This document shows positions 1-44,435 of a stretch of DNA of 64,000 nt, piece by piece. The notes beneath the pieces are model-generated. The model saw only the letters and a list, made by a program, of their open reading frames with translations, did no database searches and was not told the DNA's origin. Source of the DNA: Welwitschia mirabilis (taxonomy: Eukaryota); assembly GCA_051453625.1 (NCBI GenBank), contig JBOZIK010000001.1:19123681-19187680 (forward strand). Direction: 5' to 3'. The translations under genes and the position numbers were made by a program. Position 1 is the first letter of the stretch. Each line of letters starts with the position of its first letter.

Positions 1-1090
1 TAGGTTATTTCTACCATGAAATATCTGAGGAAGCAATAGACAAGTGTCTTGACAAGTTTGAGAAGAAGCCTATGTGCCAAGAGTTGTCTGTTGCTTCAGC
101 AGATATTAGATAACTCTATGATATGGTGCACCTATTATAAGATCTAGATCTTTCTTACTTTCTTGATATCTCAAGACCTACTTATCCTTTTCTCACCAGG
201 ATGTTTTAGAGCAATGCTTCTTTTGATTCTAATACTACTACCCTAGAAACCCTGGTTTTGGGGAAGAAGATGAGTGTTACTACAAACTACATTTATAGCA
301 TTACAAAACTCCCAAGAGGAGATTATAATGAGTTTTAACATCTTCATAACTTCATGGAAGAGAAGGTAGAAGTAATAAGAGATCTTCTTAGTAAGTTTCA
401 TAGGTAAAAAACCACCCTTCCTACTTCTTTCCTTACCCTAAAGTACTATTTCTTGCATTTAGTTTTTACCTATAATTTCTTGCCTTTGACAAGTCATTAT
501 GATGAGACCTCTAACTACAGGGTCTATTTGATGTATTTGGTAGGAACTAGACACTCTATTGATTCTCCTATCATAATGTTAGAAACTATGATCTCCCAGT
601 TGGAATATTATAGGGCTAGGGCTCTTTCCTATTCAGTGTTAAATGCTAGCATCTGTCACCTATATATAGTCTACTTGTATCTAAAGCTAGAAACCCTTAA
701 TCCTATGTTATCCATTGAGTGTATGACATTATCTCACATGCATATATTTGTAGGTTTAAAGAAATCCTTTAAATCTCTTTCTCCTAAGTGAGCCTTAGCA
801 GAAGAGAGTCTCTCATACCTGAGGAGGATAGACTCTCATACTAGGCATATGAAATAAGATCTGATTGCGGCTAGATATGAGATTGTTGATACTTATGAGA
901 AACTCAGAAGCTCTACACAAAAGGCAATTGAAGAATAAGAGGAAGAAGAAGAATAAGATTCTAAAATAAATAAGAGGAGGAATCTGAAGAATCTAACTAA
1001 TCTTCTCTTTCGATGTTGTGTTTTTTTTATTATTTATGCTTATTTTTCTTCTCTTCTTTGTCATTGATATCAAAGGGAAAGAAATAGTTA
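1..1090 (+). mobile_element. 3' portion of a degenerate Sirevirus-like (Ty1/Copia) LTR retrotransposon: extra 'env-like'/plant-transposon-protein ORF remnant plus PPT-like motif
   Basis: Stop-riddled reading frame containing PTYPFLTRMF*SN (cf. the YPxLVREFYAN motif of retrotransposon extra ORFs) and HLVFTYNFLPLTSHYD, with an acidic E-rich tail. It is followed by 'ctttgtcattgatatcaaagggaaagaa' (1056-1083), which resembles the Sirevirus PPT boxes seen in reverse at 42151-42390. Confidence 0.55.
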
Positions 1091-1479
1091 GTTGTTATTT
1101 AGCTTTTATCACATGATATTAATCTTTTCAGTGTTTTCAGTAGTACTTTTTAAGTTTTATCAGATATAATTTCTCTTAATGAGCACTCTAAAGAAAGACC
1201 TAGAATAAGAATTGGTCCATGAGAATTATTGATAAGCCTCAGTTTAGGATTTACATTAGTAAGAGATATTACCAGAATGAAGAATCTAGTAGTGAATAGG
1301 ATTGATAGATGGTTTGGAAAGGAAGCTATGTTGGAAAGCTTTTAGTTAAGGATGATTGAATTACTTTCCTTCATTTTATTGATAGTTGTAGTCATCTTGT
1401 TTGTCTTGTATAAGGCTCTTGATCTTTGGGAAAAGAAATAAGAAAAGATGTAGAAGTTACACAAACTAGTCAAACAAGC

Positions 1480-2030
1480 AGAACTGTGGTATGATATAGA
1501 ATCACAAGAAATCTATTTTCCTGATCGAAAAAGGTCAAATCTATATAAGGTAGATGATATAAAGAACATATGATGCAACATATCAAGCAATATAAGGTTC
1601 ATATGGATGTGTTAGGAGAAGGATTAAGACCTATTTTTCTTCCATTCTTCTCTAAAGATGATGTAAGACATTAGAAAGAGAAAAAAATATCATTCATTGC
1701 ACTTAGGAGAAATAAATATCATAGTACACCCAAAGTTTAACTATGATATTGGTGCGGAATACATGGTAGCATTGTTATATGTTCATCATTATGAATGGAA
1801 TAGAGCTTGGATAGGTCAATTTAAGGGATGCTTAGATAAAGACATTGTTTGCTACATACAACCAAACTTTCAGCTATCCTTATCAGATCCACACATAGCA
1901 AATGCTCTGGTTTCCTGTGTAGAAATCAAAGGAATACAGATGTTACCTTAATTTGTATACTGCTCAATTAGTTTACGATGCATTTTTTTATCTAACTTCC
2001 TCAATGTTTCTTAACTATAGATTACTGCAG
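1480..2030 (+). pseudogene. Caulimovirid 30K-family movement protein remnant
   Basis: YHSLHLGEINIIVHPKFNYDIGAEYMVALLYVHHYEWNRAWIGQFKGCLDKDIVCYIQPNFQLSLSDPHIANALVSCVEIKGIQMLP matches the caulimovirid MP core (HLGxIxI...PNFxxSLxDPxI...L...KG..M.P). Confidence 0.9.
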
Positions 2031-2959
2031 GAAGTAAGCTATCTAGTAAAAAGTAGAAACATTTTGGAGAAGGATTACATATCTCATCTGAAGAATTTCA
2101 AACTTCACATCTAATTATTGAAAAGATGCTAAATGGTAAATCTCAAGAGTTTGTTAAGAAATATTATGAGCAGTGCAATGGAAGCATTGAATTCTCAAAA
2201 ACTCCAAAAAGACATGCAAAAGAGTTAGAGAAATTAGACTCCAAACAATTAATCCCTCAAGCATCATAATCCAGCCAGAAACAAAAACTATCTTTGTTGG
2301 TAAAATCAACTTCATGGAAGATGACTTTATGGAAAAAATTAGAGGATCAATCGAATCCTACAGAGAATACCACACCTTTGACGATTCAGATAGTGAAGAC
2401 ATAGTAACTACTGATGACAAGCAAGATCCTACAAAGCTATCATGGAAAAATATACAGCTAAATGAATGGTTGCCAAAACAAAAATTCTACTATTCTCGCA
2501 ATAGCAAAGCTATAACAATAGCATATTATACTCATCTTCTTCAGCATTTAGTCAAGGATAAACAACCACAAAGAGATGAGATATGATAACTTAATTACTT
2601 AATTAGTTGGTCTGATAAAGCTTCAAGAAAATTAGATGTTACGCACTCTACTCTCAATAATCTTGAAGAACAAGGAAAAGAAACATACAGTACTAGGTCA
2701 GAACAGTCAAAAGAAAAAAGGACTCAATATACAATTACTAAGATAAGAAATTGGGAGATTGGAGAAGGAAGCAATTTTCCTACATAGATCAAAGGAGGAA
2801 TGAGTATATTTACAAAGCCATCAGAAATTCAAGAAATATGGAGGTAAAACACAGAAAGAGGAGAAAGATCAAAATTGAAGCAAAATATGTGTAAACAGAT
2901 GATGTGTAAAAACTGGTATGATGATACAGCTGATACCGAAGAAAGCTCTGAAATACATA

Positions 2960-3870
2960 TAATAAGAGGTAGAAGGCAAAGAACACCACGTAGACATCAA
3001 CCAAGGGCAAGAACCGAAAGACATCCATTTTATAGAGTGTCTGATGCTCAGCAAGAAGGTATTCAAGAAAGAAGCCTTTCAAGTATTCCTGTATTGAACA
3101 TGAATAATATTGAGATAGATGAATTAGTTCAAGTTGTCTTATCTTAGGCTAATGAAATATACTTCTTTGTCAATGTAAATAATTCAACTAAAAGAAAAAC
3201 TATAGAAGTTTCTTATCTAAGATTCTCAAGAACACTCAAATATTAGTGGTTTAATGTCGATGCAGCTCAAAAAAAATTTGCACTTGATCAAGGTATTACT
3301 CATATTACTAGAACCAGTCTTGTAGAATTTGTTGATGCTCAATCTTAAAGATTGAAGCAGTTAAAAATACAAGAAATTTTAAAAAGAAAACTGCTTTCAC
3401 TCGATTGTTTTGAAGAATATTCATGAGATTATATACATGACGTATCTAATCATGCACTCAATTATGATGTTATGTTTAAACATGCTTATCTTGCAAGTTT
3501 ACCACATGGATTAATAGGTATACTTAGCAAGCAGATGGAAAATGAGCAATTAAACATGCAAACTATTGCATTTGTAGTGCTAGTCAATTTAACTAGATGA
3601 GGCATCATGGATTCTGATCTACAAAGAGGTATATAGAAAGGTACCAAAGATATTCTGATCTCTTTAATATAAACATACAAGGAGGTTAATGCATTCTAAT
3701 ACCATCGAGCTCTCCAAGATACAAAGGCCGATACAAGCCAATTAAGAGACGTTGTACATACAAACCATACAAGTTTGCAAAACGAAGAAATACAAAATCT
3801 TAATGTACTCCAATATTCTGGACTTATCACAAAAAAGGACATTATACCAATCCGTGTCCTAAATGTGCTC
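2960..3870 (+). pseudogene. Caulimovirid capsid protein remnant with degenerate CCHC zinc knuckle
   Basis: Contains PVLNMNNIEIDE..., RFSRTLKY*WFNVD (cf. GFxGxLxxWW) and FKHAYLASLP. A K/R-rich stretch is followed by FWTYHKKGHYTNPCPK (~3816-3863; Cx2Cx4Hx4C-derived) and then an acidic tract. Confidence 0.75.
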
Positions 3871-4250
3871 CACAAGCAATTCGAAGTTTCAATATGCTCG
3901 ATGAATTTGATATTATTTCTTCTCAATTTGAGTTAGATCAGGCCATTCTAGAAGGTGCTGAACTGATTGAAATCGACTTTGATGAGATCAGTGACTTTTC
4001 TAATGAATCTCCATGCTCTAGTTCATCAGAATCACTCCAAGGTCATCATTTTTTATCTACAACTCAAACTTCTTCCCCACCACCAAGGAAAGAGACAATA
4101 ATGTATCAATCGTTTAAGTTGTAGACTCAAAAGACCCAAAAGCCTGAAGAAGAAGCAAAATCAAAGACTGTCATCAGAAATGAGGATCAAGATGATAAAT
4201 AAGTTGAAGAAATTTCTAGAATAATACTTACAGGTAAAAAGCTCAAGTTA

Positions 4251-4600
4251 GTGGTTATACCTGTAAAAGTTGAAAATAAACGTTGCAATGCTCTAGTAGA
4301 TACAGGTGCAACATTCAATTTTGCAAAGAAAGTTATTACTACAAGATGGATGAAATTACCTGATCCATACTCTATTAAGACAATGAATGGAACAAGATTA
4401 ATTGAATGGGTAGCTAAGGATGTAAAGATTTGGATTGCAGGAAAAAAGATGAAGATAAACTTCCTGGATATAGAAGGATCAAGCCATACAGTAGGAACAG
4501 GTATGTATCTTATTAAAGAAATATAACCTGTTACTATCTATCATAATAAGAACTAGTTCTATTACCAAGATAAACCAGTGACAGTACTACGACAAGAAAA
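4251..4600 (+). pseudogene. Caulimovirid aspartic protease remnant
   Basis: ORF 4251-4526: CNALVDTGATFNFAKK...W..LPDPYSIKTMNG, a retropepsin DTGA active site. Confidence 0.88.
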
Positions 4601-4664
4601 GAAGAAGATTGATAAGGTAGTTAATGCAGTTTAATATGAAAAGGTATTAAAGAAAATATCAAGA

Positions 4665-4912
4665 GTTGTTGCATTGAACATCACTTAGAAAAGTGGGATC
4701 AACATGGTATGCTAGCAGAAATTCCTTTAATCGATAATATTCCAGTTAAAAGCCCATTGATTAGACTTCCAAAGAAGATGAAGATGAATTAGAAAAGCAA
4801 GTTGAAGAATCTGTGGATAAATGATTAATTAGAATATCCACTTTAGTGTACTCTTTTGGAGTTTTTATTATCAGAAATTATTCAAAAATCAAAAGAGAAA
4901 AGGCAAGATTAA
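4665..4912 (+). pseudogene. Caulimovirid reverse transcriptase, N-terminal fragment (truncated)
   Basis: CCIEHHLEKWD...AEIPLIDNIPVKSP...EDEDELEKQVEESVDK*LIRISTLVYSFGVFIIRNYSKIKREKARL resembles the caulimovirid CxENPLxxW...EFxxQIxELL...LIRPSxSPxSSPAFxVxNHxExKRGKxR. It breaks off before VINYK. Confidence 0.85.
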
Positions 4913-5125
4913 CATGCTCAATTTTTTTCTTCCATTTGACCCTTTCATCAGTAGCCTTTACATCTGCAAGATAAATAAGCACTCTTTCTATCTCTTGATT
5001 AGCCTGATTAAGCTTTTCTTGATTAGTGAGTAGCAAGGATTGTTCAGAAATCTTTTCATATGCTTCTTGTATTTTATTAGAGTCAGAAAATAATTCATTA
5101 CATACCTTAAAATCTTGAGATTTTG

Positions 5126-6983
5126 CATCCAAATTTTTTACTATGAACTATAAACCCATACTTATCTATTCTCATTCACTTATTCTTAAAAACCATAAAA
5201 CTTGTCTTTAAGTGGGAGAGTATTATAATGTGAAACCAAAAATTTATATGCTTTTTTTCTTTTAATGGTATATTTTATCATTGACTCCTTTTAATATTTT
5301 GAAATGTAGTTATGTATAAATCACATTTAGGCGTGAAATAAAGTTAGAACAAAGAGGACTTGTTTAGACATCCTTAGAAGATTCTATAGGTTAACTAGCT
5401 TCTAAAGGTTTCTTCCCTAAAACTATCTTGAGGTTAGAAATATTTATAAGATATTCTTAGTTAATGCCTTTATCAATGATGACTTATGTATTTCAGTTTT
5501 AATAATCAATTAGTGTTGCATTGCATGTGGATATAAGGTTAAAAGAGTACTCAAGCTATGTTAAATTGTTCTTTATGGCATGTGTTTGCTACTACTTTAT
5601 TGATTTAATGTATTTTTGATTTCATTACAATCTTAACTCCAACAACCATATCTAATTGTATTTTGCCACAACTCCAAAGAGAAATATTATACTAACAGTT
5701 CCTTTGACAAATTTTTCATAAACCATTCACTAAAGACTTATGGATGGTTTTTTAAAGTCTAATCCAAGGAGAGAACAATCCATGTCAGTATACATATGAA
5801 GAGCATATATAGTTTACTATGATAAATATTAACACACTCAATGAAATATTCTAAAAGGATGAAATGTAAGTCAAGGAAGAAACTATGCTAATTTAAAAAG
5901 TTGAGCTTCAACCCCAATAGTGAAAAGAATTTTCTTATTTATTATTATCTTCTAGACATTTATTATGAGTTGATAAGGCCTTTTTCCCCCTCTAATTTGT
6001 ATTGGTAGTTTTACTAAACATGTTATAAAATTTAATAGTTGTATATTAAACTGAATTGTGTAGTAGGATTTGTCATTCCATTAAGCCTGTAACCTATTTG
6101 AGAAGTGTTTAATCTGGGACATTGTGACTTTGTCTTCAAATTTCATGTAACCTAGGATGACTACTGTATAAACTTAAATAGTTGTAAATTTTGGTATCCT
6201 TTTTTTATGTTTCATTTCTATGTAATTCTGTTACTTGATTCTAATACCTTCAATGTAAACTTCAAACTACAAACTGAATTCTTCTTCTATTTGCTATCCT
6301 CGATTTATGGCTTATGGTGATTTTTAGTTTATTTTAAAATCATATTTGAAGTGATTTTCATTTTTCAAACTGTGATTTTTGTCTTGTAAATTTCATTAAG
6401 TATTATTTAAGGAGAATGTTTTTAAATGTTCAATTGCATTGAAAATTTGGAACATAGGGAAAATCTTCATTGTGCCTAACAAAAGTTATTTACACTGTTC
6501 TCATTTTTCATTATGTATCTTAATTTTTAATCATTTCTTTTCATTGTCAGACCTATGGATGAGAACTCCAAGAAGCTTATGAATGTTGTTTGAAATATAA
6601 AAGAACTTGAAAGAAGGCTGAAATCACCCAGGTACCAAGATTGTTGTTTCTCTAATAGGTAATTCTATTTGCATTTTTCTAGTACATGATTACTTTTTTC
6701 CTTTTTTGTAGGCTTGGGATCTTTATTATCATGTCTTCAAACACATTAACAAGCAACTACCTAGTCTAACTGCACTAGAATTACATGTAATGAATTTGAA
6801 TTAATCAAAGCTAGTAATGTTGGAAATTAGGATTGCGTTTATGTACTATAACTTGGTTTCAGATTTAGTGTGTTTAACCTAATTTAGTAACTACTCATAA
6901 CATGGAGCTAGTAGTATTAGGCACTTATCAGACAGGTTATTTTTATTAGGCAAATTACTAATGGTGTAACTGTTGCTATGCTA
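5126..6983 (+). repeat. Copy 1 of ~1.9-kb diverged direct duplication (gene-fragment cassette)
   Basis: Collinear with 7084-~8985 from 'cat(c/t)caaatttttt(t)actatgaactataaacccatac' onward. It has scattered substitutions and indels and ends at the 100-N gap. Confidence 0.9.
6551..6786 (+). pseudogene. TOR: Captured TOR kinase fragment (two exons, FRB-domain C-terminus), copy 1
   Basis: Exon 6551-6631 TYG*ELQEAYECCLKYKRT*KKAEITQ and exon 6712-6786 AWDLYYHVFKHINKQLPSLTALELH, with AG/GT splice sites. Matches plant TOR ...ELLEAxECC..YK.TGKDAELTQAWDLYYHVF+RIDKQL.SLTTLDL. Confidence 0.92.
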
Positions 6984-7083
6984 NNNNNNNNNNNNNNNNN
7001 NNNNNNNNNNNNNNNNNNNNNNNNNNNNNNNNNNNNNNNNNNNNNNNNNNNNNNNNNNNNNNNNNNNNNNNNNNNNNNNNNNN

Positions 7084-8985
7084 CATTCAAATTTTTTACT
7101 ATGAACTATAAACCCATACTTATCTATTCTCATTTACTTATTCTTAAAAACCACAAAACTTATCTTTAAGCAGGAGAGTATTACAATGTGAAACCAAAAA
7201 TTTTATGCTTTTTCCTTTTAATGGTATATTTTATCATTGAATCCTTTTAATATTGTGAAAAGTAGTTATGTTATAAATCATCTTTAGATGTGAAAATAAA
7301 GTTAGAACAAAGGGAACTTGTCTAGACATCCTTAAAAGGTTCTATAGATCAACTAACTTCTAAAGGTTTCTTTCCTAGAACTATCTTGAGGTTATGAAGA
7401 TTTATAAGATATTCTTGCTTAATGCCTTTATCAAAGATGACTTATGTATTTTAATTTTAATAATCAACAAGTGTTGCATTGTACATGGATATAAGATTAA
7501 AAAAGTATCCAAGCTATGTTAAATTGTTTTTTATGGCATGTGTTTGCTAATCCTTTGTTGATTTAACGTATTATTGATTTCATTGCAATATCAACTTCAA
7601 CAGTCATATCTAATTGTGTTTTGCTGTAACTCCAAAGAGAAATATTGTGCCAACAGTTCCTTTGACAAATTTTCAATAAGCCATCCACTAAAGACTTATG
7701 GCTGGTTTTTTAAAGTCCAATCCAAGGAGAGATCAATCCATGTTATGCTACATCTGAAGAGCATATAGAGTTCATTGTGATAAATATTGACACACTCAAT
7801 GAAGTATTCTAAGAGGATGAAATGCAAGTTAAGGAAGAAACTATGCTGATTTAAAAATTTAAGCTTCAACCCTAATAGTGAAAGGGTTTTACTTATTCAT
7901 TATCATCTTCTAGACATTTATTATGAGTTAACAAGACCTTTTCCTCCCTCTAATTTGTCTTGGCAATTTTACTAAATATGTTATGAACTTTAGTAGTTAT
8001 GTATTAAACTGAACTGTGTAGTAGGATTTGTCATTCCATTGAGCATACAATCTATTTAATAAGTGTTTAAAATTGAGAATATAACCTATTTGAGAAGTGT
8101 TTGATCTTGGACATTGTGACTTTTTTTTCAAATTTCATGTAACTTAGGTTGACTACTGTATAAACTTAAATAGTTATGAATTTTAGTATTCTTTTTTTTT
8201 TGGTGTTTCATTTCTATGCAATTTCGTTACTTGATTCTAATACCCTTAATTTAAAATTCAAACTACAAACTGAATTCTTCTTCTATTTGCTATTCTTAAT
8301 CTATGTATTATGGTGATGTTCAGTTTATTTTAAAATGGTCATATTTGAAGCGATTTTCGTTTTCCAAACTGTGATTTTTGTTTTGTAAATTTTATTAAGT
8401 ATTATTGGAGGAGAATATTTTCAAATGTTCAATTGCATTAAAAATTTAGAACATAGAAAAAATCTTGATCTTTCTTGACAAAAGTTATTTATACTATTCT
8501 CATTTTTCATTATGTATCTTAATTTTTGATCATCTCTTTTCATTGTTAAGCCTATGGACAAGAACTCCAAGAAGCTCATGAATGTTGTTTGAAGTACAAA
8601 ATAACTTGAAAGGAGGCTAAAATCACTCAGGCACCAAGATTTTTGTTTCTCCAGTAGGTAATTTTATTTGCATTTTTCTGGTACATGATTGTTCTTTTCC
8701 TTTGTTGTAGGCTTGAGATCTTTCTTATCATGTCTTTAGGCACATAAACAAGAAACTACCCAGCCTGACTACACTAGAATTGCATGTAATGAATTTGAAT
8801 TAATTAAAGATACTAATGTTGTGAATTAGGATTGCATTTGTACATGTATAACTTGTTTTCAACTTTAGTGTATTCCACTAGATTTAGTAACTACTTATAA
8901 CATGGAGCTAGCAGTACAAGGCACTTATTAGATAGGTTAGTTTTATCAAGTAGGTTAGTGATGATGTAGCTGCTATTGTGCTGGT
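7084..8985 (+). repeat. Copy 2 of ~1.9-kb diverged direct duplication
   Basis: Collinear with 5126-6983. Sequence continues into further thiolase exons. Confidence 0.9.
8550..8785 (+). pseudogene. TOR: Captured TOR kinase fragment (two exons), copy 2
   Basis: 8550-8630 AYGQELQEAHECCLKYKIT*KEAKITQ; 8711-8785 A*DLSYHVFRHINKKLPSLTTLELH. Confidence 0.9.
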
Positions 8986-9261
8986 TAGTGGAAAGAAAGT
9001 TATGGAGCTGGGATTAAAAGGATTAGCCAAGATTATTGAATACTCTGATGCCACAAAGGTGAATTTTAATTCATTAGTGTTACATATGAAAGATTATCTA
9101 ATAAACTCAATTAAGAATTAATGTTAACATATGTTATATTTTTGACTTAGGCTCTTGAATTATTCACTACTACACTTGCACTTACCATACTAAAAGATGT
9201 CTCTAAATCTGGATTGGAATCTTCACAAATAGATTATTATGAGATAAATGAAGCCTTTTTT
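8959..9261 (+). pseudogene. Captured acetyl-CoA C-acetyltransferase (acetoacetyl-CoA thiolase, AACT) fragment, two exons
   Basis: Exon 8959-9058 DDVAAIVLVSGKKVMELGLKGLAKIIEYSDATK and exon 9151-9261 ALELFTTTLALTILKDVSKSGLESSQIDYYEINEAFF, with GT/AG intron boundaries. Carries the thiolase SDGAAA..LVS and YEINEAF motifs. Confidence 0.92.
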
Positions 9262-10989: not shown

Positions 10990-11265
10990 ATGCCTTTTGA
11001 GGTGTTTATTTCATAAAATACCCCAAAAGGTGGGCTTTTAAGCCTTTTTGAGGAGGCTTTTTTTTCAAAAAATGCTTTAAAAGGCATTTTTAGGCTTTTT
11101 TTTAAGAAACGCTTTAAAAGCCTTTTGAGGCTTTTTTTTCCAGAAATGCCTTAAAAGGCCTTTTAGAGGCATTTTTACTAAAATACCTTGGAAATTTCTT
11201 AAAAGCTAATTAGCTTTTAAGGTAATATTTTTTAAAGTGTTTTGTAAAGAAACAAGTTAAAAGTG
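10990..11265. repeat. Array of short inverted/direct repeats resembling CACTA subterminal repeats
   Basis: Repeated 'ccttttgagg(c)...' / '...gcc(t)ttaaaagg' palindromic units. No clean CACTA/TAGTG terminus was found. Confidence 0.55.
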
Positions 11266-13649
11266 TTTAAACCATTTTTTAAGACCTATATTTCTTATAG
11301 TAATAATTCATTTCTATGCAAGAAGGTTGGAGTTTTTCATATCTATGGTTGAATGTTTTTCTAAATGAGGAAAAATCCCTAAAGTATTGAGGATTATCAT
11401 CATAACTAAAAGAAGGTTGAAAATGAAATGCTAAAAAGAGGAAGGGAAAAAAAAAGGAAGGTTGAAAGAAGGAATGGGTCCTAGTTTCAAAAAAATCTTT
11501 CAAAGGTAAGTTCTTCTTTCTATCATTCAAGATTTCTTGAAGAGACTTACTTTTTCTACNNNNNNNNNNACAAAAATTTCACATAAAGGTCTCTTACCAT
11601 CCGTGGACTCATTCTTCAATTGTAAATTCCTCTTTCTTTTAGCAAGGATTTCATGTAGAGGCCTTTTTTCCTCCATAGAAGTATCCTTTTCTAATGGAAA
11701 ATTCTTTCTTATTTATCTAAAACTTTCACATAAAGTTATTTTGTCTTTGATAAAACCAAGCTTTAGCAACACTAAATAAGTATGTGATAGATGAATGTTT
11801 TAGATAGAAATTTTCAAAATCACAGTAAAGCACAAGGAGTAGATCAATTTATTAAATCTAATTACTAAAAGTAAATGATATAAAAAAAAGAAGATATATT
11901 ATGATCAAATAAGAGAAATCAAGCAAATCTTATAAAGTCAAAACTTGATACTATATTACAACATCAAAAGAAGGTAACACATTCAAAGAATAATATCACC
12001 TTGCTTTTGATGTAGAATCTAATCTTTCAAAGACTCACTTTCTTTTCCAAAATTTCAAGATCCTTTTAAACACTGGCATTAAACTGTTGTACTTATTTAA
12101 TGTGTAGGTTAGATCTTAAAAAATTCTTAAGTTATGGTAAGCAAACACATAGGATATAGAGTGAGTTAATCTAGGATCATAAACTTAAAGAAGCAAATGA
12201 GTTAGAGAATATATGATTCTTTGAGAAAAGGAAAGATAAGATGAGAGAAGATTTTATGTTTTTAATATTTAAGAAATAAACATGAATAATGCAAATAATA
12301 AAATTCAGTAGGATAAATGCAAATGAAAGTGGAAATGCTATGAGATGAAAATGCAAATCCTAAATGCAATCAACTAATGTTTTTGCCAACTTGTTATCAC
12401 CTAAGTTGGCCCTCATCCTCTATATCAAAATTAGATTTAATATGTAATAATATTTAATTAACATCACCATAAAGTATAAGTAATACAGAGAGAGTATGAG
12501 TTTGAGAAAAAGAAAGTACATTTTATTAACTTTTAAAATAATGTATTTTATTACATCCTCTTGTAAATAGTAGTTTCTCAATGGAAGAGACAAATCTCAA
12601 TACTAAGGAGACATCTTTTATAAATGAATGGACCCCCTTACCTAAGGTTCTCCTATTACAAGCTACTTTGATGTCAAAGCTAGGATCAGGCAATGTGAGG
12701 CCTAACGGGTTTTATATAAGTTTGGATGGTAGACTAATTTAGCTAAATGATAAACTTGAAATAATCTCATTACCTTTTTAGCTAGAAAATAGACTTGGAC
12801 AATTACATTATGATTTTAAGTAAAAGAAAAAACTAGTTATTCATCACCCACTAGACTTCATCCTCTAATGATTTATCTTTTATTAGTAGGAGAAATCTAA
12901 TTGTGGGTGGAATTTGATTGCTTTTGTCTTTAGATGTTTTTCCTCTAGTTCTTTTTATTCTACATGTTTGTACTCTAATTCTTCATCCTCTAATGCTTTG
13001 TCCTCTAGTGCTTTATCAAATGTTTCATAATTACTCAATTTTAATCCAAATATGATTAATTTTGATATTTTACCTTTTACATTCAAAAATAGTCAAGTCA
13101 ATCATTATTCATGTCAAAATTAAAATAAAATATCAACTATGTCTGGAGAAAAACCTTTTTAATTTAACAACATCTAACTTTATTTCTTGCAATAAATAAA
13201 GGGAACTAAACATTATTATAAAATATTTTAAAGATGCAAAATTATTTGGCCATTTCCTAGGCCTCCACAATTCTAGAAAACTATCATTAGAAAGATAATT
13301 GAAATTGGTTATCATTTCAGAGATCTTCCTTCATTTCCTTCTCTATATTTCCCTTATGCATATTAGGTTAAACCATTTGTACTATAATGTTTTTCACTAG
13401 GGTGTCCGCCTTGCTCACTTGTGGCATGTCTTCACAATGCTCAGTATGTGTACTATTTATTCCTTCATATTTGGATAGACTTACAGGAATCTAATCTACT
13501 CCTTTTCTAAGCTCTTCCTATTGTAAGTCTCCTCTAGTGTCTCTAGGGGTTTCTTTGGCTTTTCTTCTGATAGAATGTCAAACTTGTTTATCTTAGAAAA
13601 TGGAGAACTGTTTAGAATAGAAGCTGGCTTCTTCCTTCTGCTCTTCTTT

Positions 13650-25775: not shown

Positions 25776-27728
25776 TCATGCATTACGTTTTCGAACTCTG
25801 TCTTTCATTTTCCTTGAGAATCTTAAGAAAGCATCTGATATATCCAATTTCCCAGCCATTTTCATTTTCTCTGCTAGTTCTTCGTATATGTTTGGCCTGC
25901 CTGCTCTTGAAAAATCTGCAAGAAACTTATTGGTGTTGAATCTTGGAAGTTTCATGCCTTTGTCAATCATGCTTTCCATGTATGTACAAGCCTCTTGGGA
26001 TCTACCTTCCATGATAAGGCCCCCAATAAATATCGTATATGACTCAAAATCAGGGCAACATCCATTCTTTGCCATCTGGTCCCAAACAGAAAACCCCATC
26101 TCTGGTCTTTTTGTCGAAAAGTACAGCTTCATAAGCATGTTATAAGTGGGAACAGAAGGGACGACATTGCGTTGGACCATTTGATCATACAAATTAGATG
26201 CTTCATCTGGTCTTCTTGAAATTAACATTGCTTTGAAAAGTACGTTATAGATCCTAAAGTCACAAGGAACTTCTTTATCTTTCATTTCTTGGAGAAGCTG
26301 ATAGGCAAGGTTGAATTTCTTTCGAGCTCCAAAACCCTTTATCAAGTAAGCATATACAGCACCATCAGCAGGGTACCCATGTTCCTGCATTTCTGAAAAC
26401 AGTTTCATTGCTTCGGTTATTTTCTTAGCTTTACAAAGACCATGTATAACAATGGTGTAGGATTTCTTATTAGGAATGACATGATTTGCTTTCATTAGTT
26501 CGAAAAGCTTAAGAGCATCATCTATCCTTCTGCAGCTAAAAAGACCCTCCAGCATGATATTGTGGACTAAAATATCTGGTCTAAACCCTTCATCAACCAT
26601 CTCATTCCACAATTTCACTGCCTCTGTCAAATTTCTCACCCTACACCACCCATAAATCAACACACTGTAGGTGTTCCCGTTAGGGATAAGTCTTTCTCTC
26701 ATTCTTTCAAAGAGGGCATGGGCTTCCCGTGCTAACTTTGCTTTGCTCAAGGAAGCCAAGAGAACATTAAAAGTGTTGATATCAGCAAGGAAACCATACC
26801 TTTCCATCGAAGCAAACATCTGAACAGACCTCTTGTACTGCTTCCCTGAACAAAAACCCCTGATGGCAATTTCAAAAGTCTTAATGTTCAGAACATCCCT
26901 TTTCTTTCCCATTTCTTCCAAAAGCTCATTCATCGCCATATACTGCCTATTTTTGGCAAAAATACTCATCATGGTGTTGTATGTCAGAGAATTGTGCAAA
27001 AATCCTGGCTGTTTCCCAGCCCAACTAAAGAAACTGGAAAAAACGTTCCAAAAGAAACATATTCAGAATTCATAAGCAATATAATCAGAGTAAAAGATGA
27101 TAATCCTATCAGAAGAAACAACTGTGAGAAATATACCTGACAAAGACCTAACTGACCTGAAAGCAGGCCTCCAAGCATTGGACAACCTTCGTAAAACATG
27201 ATGCACAAGTGAATGAGACAGATCAACATCGCACTGATCGAGACCAGCCTCAAACCTGCGATTGGAAGCAAAGATCTCTTCCACAACTCCAGATACCCTA
27301 GCAACTTCCTCCAGATTAACAGGAGTATCTTCGATTTCGCGTTTTTCAAACTCTTCGTCAGAGTATTCGCCATTGTTCCCACCAATAGTCCAAGAAAATG
27401 CCCTGGTCAAGAAAGTAGGGCCGAAATTCCACGTCTTACTTCCTAATAACACATTTTGAATACCGTTTTTGCTGCTAGAAAACGTATTTATGCCGGCCAA
27501 GCTTAATCCATAAACAAAATTACAGTGCCAGAGTTTTCTTGCACAGTATCGCTGAATACTTTCATCAGGATTGACACTAGATGCATCAACTAAAAGACGA
27601 TGCGTTTGATAAACGGGAGGGATTCTTAAAGGGTACCCAAAAACCCTATGGAGCAGGAAATATCGGCTCACCATACTCCATTCTTCTGATTTTGGAAGGA
27701 AGCGTCTGCAGATGTTAAGTCGGCGCAT
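25776..27728 (-). CDS. P-class pentatricopeptide repeat protein, probably mitochondrial, At3g62470/At5g14820-like; join(27157..27728, 25776..27033), ~609 aa
   Basis: Two same-frame ORFs are joined by a 123-bp GT-AG intron (27034-27156; donor TTCAG|GTCAGT, acceptor TTCCAG|T), giving RPAFSFFSWAGKQPGFLHNSLTYN. Tandem 35-aa PPR motifs, an R/L-rich N-terminus, and C-terminal NKFLADFSRAGRPNIYEELA as in the At3g62470 family. Confidence 0.93.
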
Positions 27729-28809
27729 CGTCCTACACTAAGCCACCTTAGATACTGGACTACTGTGCAGAAACATGGTGCATACTTTCTGTAATTCCTC
27801 GAGATTTCCTTTCAACAACAGAGCGCAGCCAGATGATTTTTACATGGAGGGTATCAATAACGATACTGAATGGCTTTGGGTGCTAAATTTTACTAGGGAC
27901 TTGTCCTTGATATTTTTTAATTATAATTTATTTATTGTGANNNNNNNNNNTGAATTTTTGCCTCTAAATTTTTAGAGGAAATTATTTTACTACTATATTA
28001 ATATAAATATACTATGTTTGAGAATAAAAATACAATGCCAGATTGTATCTTCATAGTATTTGAATAGATGGATATGGAAACCAAAAAAAAGAAAAAGTAA
28101 ATTCGGCTTTACAAATCAGCATGAAAAAGATTTATGGAGTGTGAAAAATTCAAAACTTACACAAGATGAGCTTGCAAAACAGGCTTACAAAGAGATTAAG
28201 TTAGTAAAGAAGCTTGAACAAAGCACCATTTTAGAAGTCTTAAAAAGCAAACAAGAGTTTGAAAATATGGCTTCTAGTAACCTTGAATACAAAAGACGAA
28301 AATATCTTTCTTGTTCAAGAAAGAAAACATGGATTCAAAAAATTGGCTTCGAGTGACATTCAACACAAAAGAAAGTAGTGTATTGCATGTCTAAAAGTTG
28401 ATGCTACACTTGTCAATTGGTTGTTACAGTGTTAACAAGAACGTTTTACATTAGTGGGTGCTATGATAAAAGCAAAAACATAGTCATTTGCTCATCGGTT
28501 GAATATTCTTGCAGAGAGAAGCCGCCTTCCTCCCAAGCCCCACTTCTTTTTTTCCCTTCCAATGGATGGCTTCTATCTGTTCAAGGAGGACACATCTTCA
28601 AGTATTTGAAAACACATGGGAAAATCAAACTATTAGAGCAATGAAGCCATTGAATCAACTAATTGAATATAAGCACAAGAAGTAAGTATCCTCTACAAAA
28701 TATTTTTCAAATTAAAACTAAAACTTATATTTTATTATGTCTATAGACTCTAAGGATGTATTAAACAATTGAAATGTATATGTGATGAGATTTGAACACA
28801 TGAGACTTT

Positions 28810-34599: not shown

Positions 34600-37500
34600 T
34601 AGTATTATAAAAATCTCCAAAATTTAAGGATCTAGAGGTAGCAACAATGAGTGTTACATGAGATGAAGACAAAAGAATCAAAATAGCTTTAATTAACATT
34701 AGAGTGAGTGTTAACATCATACAATTACACATTTGTAAGAGACTCGATTTACAAGATAGAATAAAACCTAGTCAGATTCTCTTAGAATTAGTAAACACAT
34801 TGATTAAGAAACCGTTAGGGGTTATCAAATATTTAGTGATCCAAATTAAAAAAGTATTATACCCGATAAATGTGGTTATCATAGAAGTCAAACATAATAG
34901 AGGTTATCCATTGCTTCTAAGAAGATCCTTCTATGCAAAAGCCCATTACATCGTTAATACAAGAACTAGGATGATGGAATGTCACCTAGAAAATGAAAAG
35001 TTTTCAATTAGATTTTTTGATTCAGTTAAGAAAACTTAGGTGATGAATGGAACATAAAAAATAGAATCAAACCAATGTTATTTCTTCAACATCATTTCCT
35101 TTAAGAAAGATGGCTAATGTTACATGAATCTATGCTTTATGATGATCCACTTGAGATTAAAAATCTAGAAGTTTTTAATACATCCAACCTTAAGCATCTA
35201 GAAAATGACCTTTTAGATCAGGATGAAGAAGAAACAAAATCCTTAGTCTGTAAGGAAATCCAACTATTAACAACAAATGAAAACTCATACTTTGAGAAAG
35301 ATCATCTACTACATGAGTCAGAAACTGAATATCTTAATCTTAATTTGAAAAATCTTCCTAGTGAACTAAAATATATTTTTCTCTGTAATGATTAAAAAAA
35401 ACCTCTCATAATCAATGGTAATATTTTCTCTGAATAAGAGTCAACATTAATCTCCCTTTTGACTTCCAAAATTCATGCCTTTACTTGGTCTCATAAAGAT
35501 TTATCTGCCATTCCTCCTTTTATTGTTCAGCATAAAATCTATCCTAAGGAAAATGTGAAACCTATTAGGTAACCATAAAGAAGATTAAATCTAGCATTTA
35601 AACAAGTACTTAAGAATGAAATCATTAAGTTAATGGATGTTAGAATCATTTATGCTATATCAGATAGTGAATGGTTTAGTCCCTTAATTGTAGTACCAAA
35701 GAAGGATGGGAAATGGAGAGTATGCATAGATTTTAAAAAACTAAACAAAGTGTCAAAGAAAGATCATTTTCCCCTACTCTTTATTGACTAGATACTTGAT
35801 AGAATTTATGTACATGCTTTCTATTGCTTTTTAAATGGATATAGTAGTTATAATCAAGTTTTCATAGCTAGTGAACACTAGGCTAAAATAACTTTTACTT
35901 TACCTTTTAGGACATTTGCTTTTAGATGAATGCCTTTTGGATTATGTAACACTTCTAGAACTTTTTAAAGAGCTATGATGGGTATTTTTTCAGACATGTT
36001 AGAGGACTTGATAGAAATCTTTATGGATGACTTTTGAATCTTTGGAGAAACCTTTGATCAAATCTTCAAAAGTTTAAAAAAAGTCCTTAATATATGTATG
36101 GAGTGTGGTGTTCATTTAAGTTGGGAAAAGAGTTTTTTTTCTAGTTGAAATTGGAATTGTTCTAGGCCACAATATTTCTAAAAAAGAAATTAAGATGGAC
36201 CCTGAGAATGTTGGTATTATTCAATACTTAACTTCTCTAACCAATGTTAAGAAACTTTGATCTTTTCTTGGAAATTGTGGTTTTTACTACTGCTTCATAT
36301 AAGATTATGCTAAAATATATAAACCCCTACACTCATTACTAGAAAATAAGCTAAATTTGATTGAAATACATCTTGTCAGCTTACTTTCAATAAACTCAAA
36401 CATAAACTCTCTTATGCTCCTGTTGTAATAGGACCTGATTGGGAAAAATATTTTTAGTTAATATGTGATGCTAGTAATTTTGCTGTACGTGAGGTGCTTG
36501 AATAAAAATACAAAAATGATTTAAAGTTATTTCTTACCATAGTAAAACATTGTACAATTCTCAAGTAAATTACTTAACTATCAAGAGAGAAATATTATCC
36601 ATAATCTTTTGCCTCAATAATTTTAGACATTTTTTAGGCTTCCACACAAATGTCTACATAGATCATGTGGTGATTAAATACCTAATGACTAAGAAATATT
36701 ATAGCACTAGGTTGATTAGATGGATCNNNNNNNNNNNNNNNNNNNNNNNNNNNNNNNNNNNNNNNNNNNNNNNNNNNNNNNNNNNNNNNNNNNNNNNNNN
36801 NNNNNNNNNNNNNNNNNNNNNNNNNNATGAAGAGTCTGCATAGATTTTAAAAAACTAAATGAAGTCACAAAAAAGGATCATTGGTAGAATTTAAAAACAT
36901 GCTTTTTATTGCTTTTTAGATGAATGTATCAGTTATAACTAGGTTTGCATAGCTAGTGAAAACTAGGCTAAGAAAACTTTTACTTCACCTTTTGGAACAT
37001 TTTCTTTTAGAGAAATTTCTTTTAGATTATGTAACTTTTCTAGAATATTTCAACATGCTATGATGGGCATTTTTTTAGACATGATAGAGATTCAATATAA
37101 ATTTTTATTGATTACTTTTTAGTCTTTTGAGAAACCTTTGATCAAATCTTAAAAAGATTAAAAAATTCCTTGATAGATGCATAGAATATGGCCTTTATTT
37201 AAGTTGGGAAAAGAGCTTATTTTTAGTTGAAAATCGAAAAGTCCTAGGTCATCACATTTCTAAAAGAGAAATTAAAATGGAATCTAAAAAGTTTAGTATC
37301 ATTCAAAACTTAACTCTTCCAACCAATGTTAAGTAACTCTAATCTTTTCTTGAACATTGTGATTTTTATCATTTCTCCATATAAGATTATGCTAAAATCT
37401 ATAAACCCCTACACTCATTACTAGAAAAAGAAGTTAAATTTGATTGGAACAAGTCTTATTAGCTTTCTTTTAATAAACTTAAACATAAACTCTCTTATAC

Positions 37501-39200
37501 TCCTATTACAATAGAACCCGATTGGAAAGAAGATTTTGAATTAATATGTGATGCTAGTACTTTTGTTGTAGGTGGGGTGCTTGGATAAAAATATGAAAAT
37601 GATTTCAAATTTATATCTAATCATAGTAAAATAGTATTCAAAGCTCAAGCAAGTTATACAACTATGAAGAGGGAGATGTTAGCCATAATCTTTTGTCTTA
37701 AAAATCTTAGACATTATCTTTTAGGCTTTTACATAAACATCTATATAGACCATGTGGTGATTAAATACCTGATGACTAAGAAAGACTCTAGTACTAGGCG
37801 GATTAAATATATCCTCTTAATGCAAGAATTTAATTTCACCATCATAGATAAGGCAAAAAAACATAACAATATAGCAAATTAGTTATTACACCTTACTTCT
37901 GCTTTTGATGATATTTCTATTAGTGATTCTTTTCCAAATGAATAACTATTTATTGTATCTTATACTCATCCTCCTCCATAGTACATGGATATTGTTAACT
38001 ATCTTGTTACTTTAAAAACATCATAAAATTGGAGTCACAATTAAAGAAAATCTTTTCTCCATAGGATAGGTGACTACGAGTGGATCTCACCTCATCTTTA
38101 TCATTGGTGTAAGGATCAAACTAGAATGAGAAAAACCTAATATCCTTCACCCTTATCATGGTGGCATTTGTAGTGGACATTTTAGTAGTCAAAAAATAGT
38201 CATGAAAGTTATTCACTCCGGATTCTATTGGCCTAGTCTTTTTAGGACTCTTTTGAGTATGCTAGAAAGTCTAATGCATGTAAATATTTTAATATCCTTT
38301 TATGATCATAGGATATGTCCCTCAAACCTAGTCTTTAGTGTGAACCTTTTGATTATTAGGGAATCAATTTCATAGGCCTAATTAAACCACCTTCTAAAAA
38401 CAAAAATTACATCTTAGTGGTTATGGATTATGTGATTAAATGGATTAAAGTAGTTCCTACTTACTCAAATGATGTCTGAACCATTTGTAACTTTGTTAGA
38501 ACTCAAATTTTTTAATGTTTTGGATTTTTTTAAAATAATTATTAGCCATTAGGGAACTCATTTCATTAATTATCTTTTTAGAAAACTTCTTTTATTCATT
38601 GGTATAGAACATAGAGTAGCTTGTGCTTACCACCCTTAAACCAATGGATAAACTGAAAATGCTAATAAAGAAGTCAAAAAAATGCTTATAAGACTTATAT
38701 CTACTAATAAGAAGTCATGGAATTTTAAGCTAAATGATGTTCTTTGGGCTTACCATACAACTTGGCATAATTTACTTGGTTTCTCACCCTATGAACTTGT
38801 ATACGACAAAATCTATGTTTTCCTTATTGATGTTTGTTATAATTCTTATCGTTCTATACCTCAACTTAATCTTGTTAATTTAGAAGAGAATTTTACAACT
38901 TGTTTAGCTCAATTATATCATTGAGATGAAAAACAAACTCAAGATATGCATCGTTAACTTATTCACAAAGTCCAAAATAAGTTTAAAGATGATAAAAAGC
39001 TAGTCCATAAGAACTTTGAACTTGGTCAACTAGTCTTGTTGTACAACACTAGAATGTAACTCATACATAACAAGTTAACCTCAAAATTATTAAGTGCTTA
39101 CCTTATTAAGAAAATACATTCTAATGGCTCAGTTAAGATTTCTGACTTAACCACTAAAGAAATTTAGAAAGTTAATGGACAAAGGTTGAAAATATGCGAG
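34600..39200 (+). pseudogene. Degenerate Gypsy pol (protease, RT, RNase H, integrase), with RT-RH repeated across an N gap
   Basis: Motifs include PLIVVPKKDGKWRVCIDFKKLN, KDHFPL, FMDDF, ICDASNFAV, GGICSGHF, YHP*TNG*TE and KVNGQRLK. Confidence 0.92.
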
Positions 39201-42899: not shown

Positions 42900-44435
42900 T
42901 CAAAAAGACTCTAAATTCTTAGCTTTATCCATATGGTCTTTCTTGACTTTTGGGTAGAAACTTGTTTAGGGAAAAATTTAAATGATAAAGCATCAGTGTT
43001 TGCAAAACACGTATTTTTTCTATATGGACAGTTAAATTCTAAATGTCCAAGTTTACAATAATAATGACAAGTGATATTTTTGGTAGAACATGTCATACAT
43101 TTAATACTTAACTTACTAGATGAAGTTGATGTACTATTACCTTCAAATCAATATCCTTTTTTTCATGTGCAAGTTGTTCCAATCCAAGAATCTTCTCAAG
43201 TTTCTTTAATCATTCTATGAATCTACTCAAGACTTGTGAATATTGAATTAATTTCCTTATGAGACTTATATTTTCTTTTTGAATCTCTTTATATCTTTGA
43301 TTTAAGACTTCATGCTCCCTTTTTAAATTATTAATGATATTATTTAGTTGATTGACTTTTACAACAACTCTTTTACATTCTTGATATAGTTCATGACATG
43401 TGTCTTCAACATTCTCCTCTTCTTCATCTTCACTCATATCCAAATCATCATGCTTATTGAGTTTTGATGACTAAGTAGTGGGATTCACAAGTGCCATGAA
43501 AGATAATGTTTAATGTTCTTTAGATTCTTTATTTCAGCTTTTTTCTTCTTATTCTTCTTCTTCAAAGTTATTCCAAGTGGCTACTAGTGAGGTCTTCTTT
43601 AGGTCCTTTAGTTTCCTATTATTGATATCATTATTTTTCATATGCCTAAAACTCTTGTTGAATTTTCTATCTCTTCTTTTTAATAAAAATGCTTTAAANN
43701 NNNNNNNNNNNNNNNNNNNNNNNNNNNNNNNNNNNNNNNNNNNNNNNNNNNNNNNNNNNNNNNNNNNNNNNNNNNNNTCTTCTTTCTATTAAAAAATTTT
43801 AACTCATAAGTTTGAAGGTTACCTTGTAGTTCATCTAGTGGCATCTTGCTAAGATCTTTACTTTCTTTGATTGCAGTCATCTTGGGTTCAGCTCTCTTGG
43901 GAAGGGTTCTTAAGATCTTCCTTACTATCTTAGCTTTCTCCATCTTTTCTCCAAGGCTTACCATGGAGTTTACAATGTTCATTAGAATTTTTTAAGAGTA
44001 TCTTCATCATCCATCTTAATATCTTCAAATTTTGTAATCAACATCTGCATCTTTACTTACTTAACATTAGATGTTCCTTCATGATCAATAGCAAGAATAT
44101 CCCATACTTCTTTGGTGGTCTCGTAGTTTACTATTCTCTTAAACTCATCTATAGCCATAGAACAAAAAATTGAATTCAAAACACAAGTATTAATAGTTGC
44201 ATTAGCTTTATCTAATTTATTGCATTTATCTTTTGGTTTCAACACTACTATAAAATTGCCATTGGCATCCTTTTAAGTTGTGTCATGGTGGCTATAACTT
44301 GTGATTAATAGATCCTCATAATCTATATCAAGAGATCTTAAGAATATTCGTATTCTAGCCTTCTAATATCCATAGTCTATTTCATCAAAGAGTGGAGGCC
44401 TAAAAATAGATAAAGCTTATGTAATAAAATCCATG
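42900..44435 (-). pseudogene. Sirevirus-like gag remnant (no pol)
   Basis: Minus strand reads RPPLFDEIDYGY*KARIRIFLRS, TTKEVWDILAIDHEGTSNVK, KIVRKILRTLPKRAEPKMTAIKESKDLSKMPLDELQGNLQTYE, a coiled coil, and CHYYCKLGHLEFNC. Confidence 0.9.

Follow-up and report, generated by a model that had tools for sequence, protein, structure and literature searches.

A 64,000-nucleotide stretch of Welwitschia mirabilis DNA (assembly GCA_051453625.1, contig JBOZIK010000001.1, positions 19,123,681 to 19,187,680; hereafter the window) holds, at positions 1457-4911 of its forward strand, the remains of a caulimovirid polyprotein gene in the order movement protein (MP), capsid, protease and start of the reverse transcriptase (RT). 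With high confidence, this region is a single, old, non-functional and 3'-truncated endogenous fragment of the lineage of Welwitschia mirabilis virus 2 (WMV2), which belongs to subclade B.1 of the Caulimoviridae and to the proposed genus 'Gymnovirus'. The lineage has already been described, both as a virus and in the form of endogenous copies, and the element is an ordinary member of it and represents no new genus. A first-pass annotation had recognized an endogenous caulimovirid here, which is borne out by the PF01107 and PF02160 domains and by the collinearity with WMV2. Its further proposal that the lineage was unassigned and might mark an undescribed genus has to be given up, as the element is the strongly supported sister of the published WMV2, with a named lineage that is placed in B.1.

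Relationship to Welwitschia mirabilis virus 2

The assignment rests first of all on protein similarity. In an exhaustive phmmer (HMMER) search of 1,835,955,588 representative proteins with the translation of 3693-4640, in which stops were written as X, five proteins were recovered at E<=0.001. The top match, P0001 (E 6.4e-63, 46% identity, 2111 amino acids), is NCBI DBA06665.1, 'TPA_asm: polyprotein [Welwitschia mirabilis virus 2]'. Alignment of this protein to the window by tblastn yielded five collinear high-scoring segment pairs (HSPs), which place WMV2 residues 7-1153 on 1457-4911 with 544 identical and 567 mismatched positions and 20 stops, corresponding to an overall identity of about 48%. 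Among 125 fetched proteins, 23 gave any tblastn match to positions 1-6000 of the window, and the summed bit scores set WMV2 (947) far above WMV1 (285), two Nymphaea thermarum proteins (168 and 152), Pinus nigra virus 1 (77) and petunia vein clearing virus (PVCV; 33.5).

WMV2 was published as a 7,648-nucleotide circle with one open reading frame (ORF) of 2,111 amino acids, featuring an MP (57-188), an A3 protease (932-1080), an RT (1124-1302) and an RNase H domain (1399-1559) (Debat & Bejerman 2022, bioRxiv 10.1101/2022.02.23.481439); its GenBank genome is BK061148. The polyproteins of WMV1 and WMV2 share 28.3% identity, and both viruses together with Pinus nigra virus 1 make up the proposed gymnosperm genus 'Gymnovirus' (bioRxiv 10.1101/2022.02.23.481439). 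According to a later study, WMV1 and WMV2 fall into Caulimoviridae subclade B.1, the hosts of which include Welwitschiaceae, Gnetaceae, Pinaceae, Cycadaceae, Nymphaeaceae and Amborellaceae (PLoS Pathogens 2026, PMC13308828). Its supplements record 50 WMV2-type and 25 WMV1-type RT loci in the Welwitschia assembly, with genomic RT clusters inside the operational taxonomic units (OTUs) of WMV2 and of WMV1 (PMC13308828). Such OTUs are delimited by an RT amino-acid identity of >=55% to the reference (PMC10377300).

The next three phmmer matches (P0002-P0004) are predicted proteins of Nymphaea thermarum that are named as pieces of caulimovirid-like polyproteins. Apart from WMV1, nothing was found closer to a capsid and protease of the WMV2 type than these annotated proteins, in keeping with the reported extension of subclade B.1 to basal angiosperms. 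One of them, the 'Polyprotein CP' P0002, also aligns to the capsid region of the element (3079-3597). The list of B.1 hosts in PMC13308828 agrees with the next-best matches of the element, i.e., WMV1 and Nymphaea, and thus lends independent support to the placement. Other searches returned little. A word-indexed search among longer proteins with 3804-4640 (stops as X) gave 1009 candidates and none at E<=0.001, the same kind of search with WMV2 residues 1-1153 found solely WMV2 itself and one weak match, and of 32 pattern matches to the protease query among IMG/VR viral contigs none was confirmed.

The identity to WMV2 is distributed unevenly along the element (chi-square over 24 bins, p=1.3e-8). 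It reaches 61% in the MP domain (81 of 132 residues, WMV2 57-188) and 59% in the capsid region (142 of 240, WMV2 561-800, with seven stops), and 73 of 149 residues are identical in the protease (WMV2 932-1080). The linkers lie at 34-36%, including the spacer between MP and capsid (134 of 372, 36%, WMV2 189-560) and the capsid-protease linker (31 of 92, WMV2 840-931). Two features that had been taken as marks of novelty lose this meaning in the alignment. The spacer of about 1 kb between MP and capsid is ordinary polyprotein, since the region ~2000-3150 aligns unbroken to WMV2 ~190-560, and the MP peptide quoted as divergent is nearly the same in WMV2.

Content and state of the element

Homology to WMV2 begins at 1457 (residue 7) and not at 1352, where the start had been set. 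An ATG at 1448-1450 (+) lies three codons 5' of the first WMV2-aligned residue and is directly followed by a stop codon; judged by this position, it is possibly a remnant of the polyprotein start. The MP part (1457-2221, +, WMV2 residues 7-260) is read in frame 2 except for a detour through frame 1 (1558-1704), with 49.8% identity over 259 columns in tblastn. The detour shares 63% identity with WMV2 41-89 and fills the gap in the MP N-terminus. The MP-like segment matches the 30K MP profile (PF01107), as had been proposed. The match is partial, extending over positions 67-158 of the 191 in the profile (window 1667-1951), with an E-value of 1.4e-8 and a score of 35.1 bits (cutoff 23). In addition, the top three clusters found by ESM-Atlas features of the MP are MP-domain proteins, with scores of 0.93-0.95.

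The inter-domain region (2209-3150, +, WMV2 ~257-590) lies in frame 1 within the HSP covering WMV2 residues 257-762, has no Pfam family and carries a 21-residue deletion in its acidic tract relative to WMV2. It passes into the capsid core (3150-3663, +, WMV2 ~590-762), likewise in frame 1 and aligned to WMV2 across in-frame stops. A basic tract with a decayed zinc knuckle follows in frame 3 (3672-3860, +). The CCHC knuckle of the first-pass annotation persists as a remnant at 3816-3857, as revealed by alignment to the WMV2 knuckle; the histidine and the last cysteine are kept, but two of the three cysteine positions, the first two, now read F (3816-3818) and Y (3825-3827). No zf-CCHC match was given by Pfam at this remnant, and no family was matched in the capsid or spacer region either. 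The acidic, serine-rich capsid-protease linker (3861-4202, +, frame 3) features indels relative to WMV2 and two stops.

The A3-type aspartic protease (4203-4604, +, frame 3) aligns to WMV2 as far as residue 1050; it is open over 4203-4526 and then interrupted by two in-frame stops. Its DTGA motif, which had been noticed before, is present, and the open part matches Peptidase_A3 (PF02160, 4203-4526) with an E-value of 1.1e-6 and 28.7 bits, above the cutoff of 21.3. The protease-RT linker and RT start (4646-4911, +), in frame 2 and then frame 1, are visible solely through tblastn HSPs to WMV2 residues 1065-1153. The RT N-terminus was therefore seen correctly as far as this alignment goes, but the RT domain itself is represented by just about 30 residues, because the WMV2 RT begins at 1124 and the element stops at 1153.

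All of these parts stand on one strand in viral order, with no integrase family matched by Pfam in the three forward frames of the element and no flanking direct repeats resembling long terminal repeats (LTRs) found around it, in agreement with the content described at first. The 'one collinear run' claimed at that stage holds with regard to collinearity with WMV2, but the run is not open. Three-frame translation combined with the WMV2 alignment yields a coding path through all three frames with at least six frame changes (near 1557, 1665-1704, 2210, 3665, 4605-4645 and 4755-4768) and 20 in-frame stops. The element ends at residue 1153 of the 2111-residue WMV2 polyprotein and lacks the C-terminal 958 residues, which comprise most of the RT, the RNase H and the C-terminal region; this lack concerns the truncated copy and not its lineage. 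Pfam matches to RVT_1 or RNase H were missing within 1201-5402, the caulimovirid remainder, including the RT, was not found by tblastn elsewhere in the window, and self-blastn revealed no second copy of the element within the window. Judged by its sequence, the element is unable to encode any viral protein or to replicate. Accordingly, no function is expected, because no viral protein can be made and the polymerase is absent.

Two other RT-like stretches, at 35.5-39.2 kb (+) and 58.4-59.6 kb (-), might have supplied the lost part of the element. This reading was rejected, as their best matches are integrase-bearing Ty3-type proteins with 27-43% identity; RNase H and integrase zinc-binding domains were found by Pfam at 37589-38372, in the first of them. 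As an observation in its own right, the window carries here two decayed Ty3-type retrotransposon bodies, at 35522-39152 (+) and 58444-59557 (-), with RT, RNase H and an integrase zinc-binding domain.

Phylogenetic placement

The position of the element was inferred with IQ-TREE (LG+C20+F+G4) from MP and protease, and not from the RT, in an alignment of 34 rows and 283 columns. The window was represented by its two unbroken ORFs, an MP of 94 amino acids and a protease of 107 amino acids, together with the matching parts of 33 proteins. These comprised WMV1, WMV2, Pinus nigra virus 1 and PVCV, genomic proteins of Fragaria, Cornus and Nymphaea, one tungrovirus, ten named badnaviruses, nine unnamed caulimovirid-like polyproteins with MP and protease each, and three Ty3 outgroup proteins with the protease alone.

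In this tree, the window and WMV2 are sisters (ultrafast bootstrap 100, SH-like approximate likelihood ratio test 97). WMV1 is next to this pair (98/94), and the Nymphaea proteins group with all three (95/89). PVCV and the Fragaria proteins, as well as the badnavirus and tungrovirus group, are placed elsewhere; PVCV features a very long branch (2.39) and its own position is unsure. Pinus nigra virus 1 shows no supported grouping with the WMV1/WMV2 set and is unresolved at the base. The end branch of the window measures 0.50 and that of WMV2 0.17.

Evidence weighed against the assignment and alternative readings

Several points weigh against the placement as a decayed fragment of the WMV2 lineage. 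An identity of about 48% is far below that of a recent WMV2 copy, two or more base changes are required to explain 211 of the 567 mismatches, and transversions occur frequently. At this distance, the element can be assigned to the level of 'WMV2 lineage' and no finer. Nor is any formal taxon threshold applicable, because caulimovirid species, genera and OTUs are delimited in the RT-RNase H region (for species, >=80% nucleotide identity), which is absent from the copy. The tree holds no named Florendovirus, Gymnendovirus, Fernendovirus, Caulimovirus, Soymovirus, Cavemovirus or Solendovirus rows, and its references were limited to proteins of 1161-3695 amino acids. Furthermore, the motif of the tRNA-Met primer-binding site gave no match at <=1 mismatch, and at <=3 mismatches 38 matches stood against 35.6 expected; among these, the match at 1065-1076 (+) does not rise above chance. 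Finally, the direction of substitution was counted with the WMV2 protein as a stand-in ancestor and with amino-acid-changing differences alone visible; among the mismatches to WMV2 explainable by a single base, this count gave G>A 91 and C>T 37.7 versus A>G 34.5 and T>C 10, i.e., a ratio of about 3:1.

The element has a GC content of 32.2% and an observed/expected CpG ratio of 0.28, compared with 30.4% and 0.19 for the window. The window value is close to the 29.07% GC published for Welwitschia, which the genome paper ascribes to long-term deamination and sets beside about 39% for transposable elements of Gnetum (Wan et al., PMC8275611). Together with the nearest virus, this low-GC, CpG-poor composition points to Welwitschia as the likely host. 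The excess of G>A and C>T together with the low CpG ratio fits the methyl-cytosine deamination described for Welwitschia (PMC8275611).

The alternative that survives best is that the element is a copy of WMV2 itself, i.e., of the same species, with all of its divergence due to decay after integration. WMV2 is the top match by far, the Welwitschia genome has RT loci of the WMV2 type on record (PMC13308828), and the 20 stops, at least six frameshifts and long end branch bear witness to much neutral decay, in which G>A and C>T changes (128.7) outweigh the reverse ones (44.5). Neutral decay is, however, expected to be even along the sequence, yet the MP and capsid cores are at 59-61% and the linkers at 34-36%, an unevenness at odds with that expectation (p=1.3e-8). 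Moreover, WMV2 has an end branch of its own, with 0.17 changes per column since the split, the mismatches that need two or more base changes form a substantial share, and WMV2 matched the sequencing libraries at 96-100% nucleotide identity (bioRxiv 10.1101/2022.02.23.481439), far closer than this copy. Descent from WMV2 itself is accordingly regarded as unlikely.

The integrated virus would rather have been a relative or ancestor of WMV2 than WMV2 itself, with viral divergence and later decay both contributing to the distance. Part of the divergence probably arose under selection in the virus, because the identity to WMV2 is uneven. Whether the copy is even the fossil of a distinct older species, or of the direct ancestor, within the WMV2 lineage can be suggested tentatively at most; we consider it possible, although somewhat short of probable. 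Viral divergence beyond decay is indicated by the contrast between domains at about 60% and linkers at about 35% and by the WMV2 branch of 0.17.

Far less probable is an undescribed genus-level lineage of endogenous caulimovirids. The nearest known protein has just about 48% amino-acid identity, five matches were obtained among 1.84 billion representatives, the depth is at the single-copy level at 90% likeness with no near-identical family visible, and the RT required for a formal test is absent from the copy. These points are outweighed by the collinearity with WMV2 over 1,147 residues, by the 61% identity that the two unbroken stretches of MP and protease have kept through heavy decay, and by the sister position to WMV2 at 100/97. 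In addition, the window is much nearer to WMV2 than the proposed genus-mates WMV1 and WMV2 are to each other (28.3%), and its end branch, three times that of WMV2, is of a length that decay would produce, rather than deep divergence among viruses. A new genus is therefore very improbable.

Membership in Petuvirus or Florendovirus, suggested by the same MP-capsid-protease-RT order in one polyprotein and by a weak PVCV match, can be practically dismissed, as PVCV matches the MP alone with its 33.5 bits against 947 for WMV2, the Fragaria endogenous caulimovirid proteins match solely 46-47 residues of the RT N-terminus, both lie apart from the group of window, WMV2, WMV1 and Nymphaea (95/89), and, with no named Florendovirus row in the tree, the exclusion of that genus rests on the published placement of WMV2 (PMC13308828).

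Flanks, copy number and proposed history

The element is low-copy and bounded by high-copy repeats. At 90% likeness, the summed contig depth is about 2-5 over 1147-4821. On the 5' side, a high-copy repeat (1000-1146) reaches a depth of 939-2507 compared with 4-22 at 1147-1440, and the low-copy stretch between this repeat and the ORF (1147-1447) is either viral leader or host DNA. On the 3' side, a high-copy non-viral repeat (4908-5400) abuts the truncated RT, with its edge at about 4908 and a depth of 65-537 from 4969. Other copies of this right-hand repeat start at 4908, as seen from loose ends in run X5. The 3' junction is real and no assembly error, because a 280-base contig of run X7 (record 16) spans 4779-5058 with no differences. 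When the junction and 1-1500 were compared with the window by sensitive blastn, nothing turned up but the tandem copy further downstream and weak matches of AT-rich sequence.

In a search of sequencing runs, 13 DNA runs from four studies contain the stretch, and no RNA run was listed by the same search. About a quarter of the data of each of two RNA-seq runs gave no reads on 1147-4527 and three partial reads in total, near or in the 3' flank. They show no sign of transcription, although this is weak evidence.

Taken together, the following history is proposed. A DNA copy of a pararetrovirus of the WMV2 lineage would have been captured in the host chromosome, presumably by illegitimate recombination, as is usual for the integrase-less Caulimoviridae. 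The 5' 55% of the single polyprotein gene is left, the rest having been lost at the junction with the high-copy repeat at about 4908-4911. Either the repeat may have inserted into the RT with loss of the distal part, or the viral DNA may have been truncated before its capture. Since integration, the copy has undergone neutral decay, largely through C-to-T and G-to-A changes, as from deamination of methylated cytosines.

Some further observations concern the right-hand flank. Directly after the viral fragment, a tandem unit of about 2 kb is present in two copies (5126-7083 and 7084-9040), which are 79-94% identical in blocks. The second copy begins at the end of a 100-N gap (6984-7083), which hides the unit boundary and the membership of 4912-5125. 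A minus-strand open frame of 89 amino acids in the right-hand repeat (4881-5147) has no Pfam family.

Other features of the window

The window as a whole is AT-rich plant DNA with ten N gaps. A pentatricopeptide-repeat (PPR) gene is located at 25779-27737 (-), with an open frame of 428 amino acids matching PPR_2 (E 6e-79) and an upstream frame of 224 amino acids without a family; with 40% GC, this gene is the GC-richest part of the window. A copia-type gag fragment at 44060-44272 (-) matches PF14223 with an E-value of 8.6e-5, which is below the curated cutoff. Besides, an AT-rich repeat array at 10999-11512 consists of five copies of 37-38-base units with 66-100% identity and adjoins two 10-N gaps.

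Significance and comparison with known systems

The significance of the element is modest and mainly a matter of annotation, as it adds one more dead copy to a lineage described from this host group. Nevertheless, an old chromosomal relative of WMV2 bears on the nature of that virus, for which an episomal form has been proposed. Its genome was put together from sequencing libraries, and it may be either a living virus or a composite of young endogenous copies. A single diverged copy is unable to decide between the two. Provided that the copy does stem from a distinct older species, other copies with an RT, if they exist, could define a third caulimovirid of Welwitschia and offer a time point for the persistence of B.1 in this host.

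Compared with PVCV and the florendoviruses, the element shares the N-terminal MP, in what would have been a single large polyprotein, the lack of an integrase and the mostly or often endogenous state. PVCV is nevertheless distant in sequence and stands in a different part of the tree. For the florendoviruses, a comparison of ORF2 is impossible, because the 3' half of the element is missing. With subclade B.1 the agreement is closer, as the next relatives of the element, WMV1 and the endogenous caulimovirid proteins of Nymphaea thermarum, match the published B.1 hosts (PMC13308828). The B.1 catalogue in that study is RT-based; an element with almost no RT would go uncounted in it, and RT-based catalogues of endogenous caulimovirids miss RT-less fragments of this kind. 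The closest likeness is that to WMV2. Unlike the virus, which was assembled as a circle of 7,648 nucleotides, the element is chromosomal with host repeats on both sides, and it features stops, frameshifts and indels in the acidic linkers and lacks the counterpart of WMV2 residues 1154-2111. Still, it shares with WMV2 the order of MP, capsid (here with a decayed zinc knuckle), A3 protease and RT that characterizes the one polyprotein of this virus.

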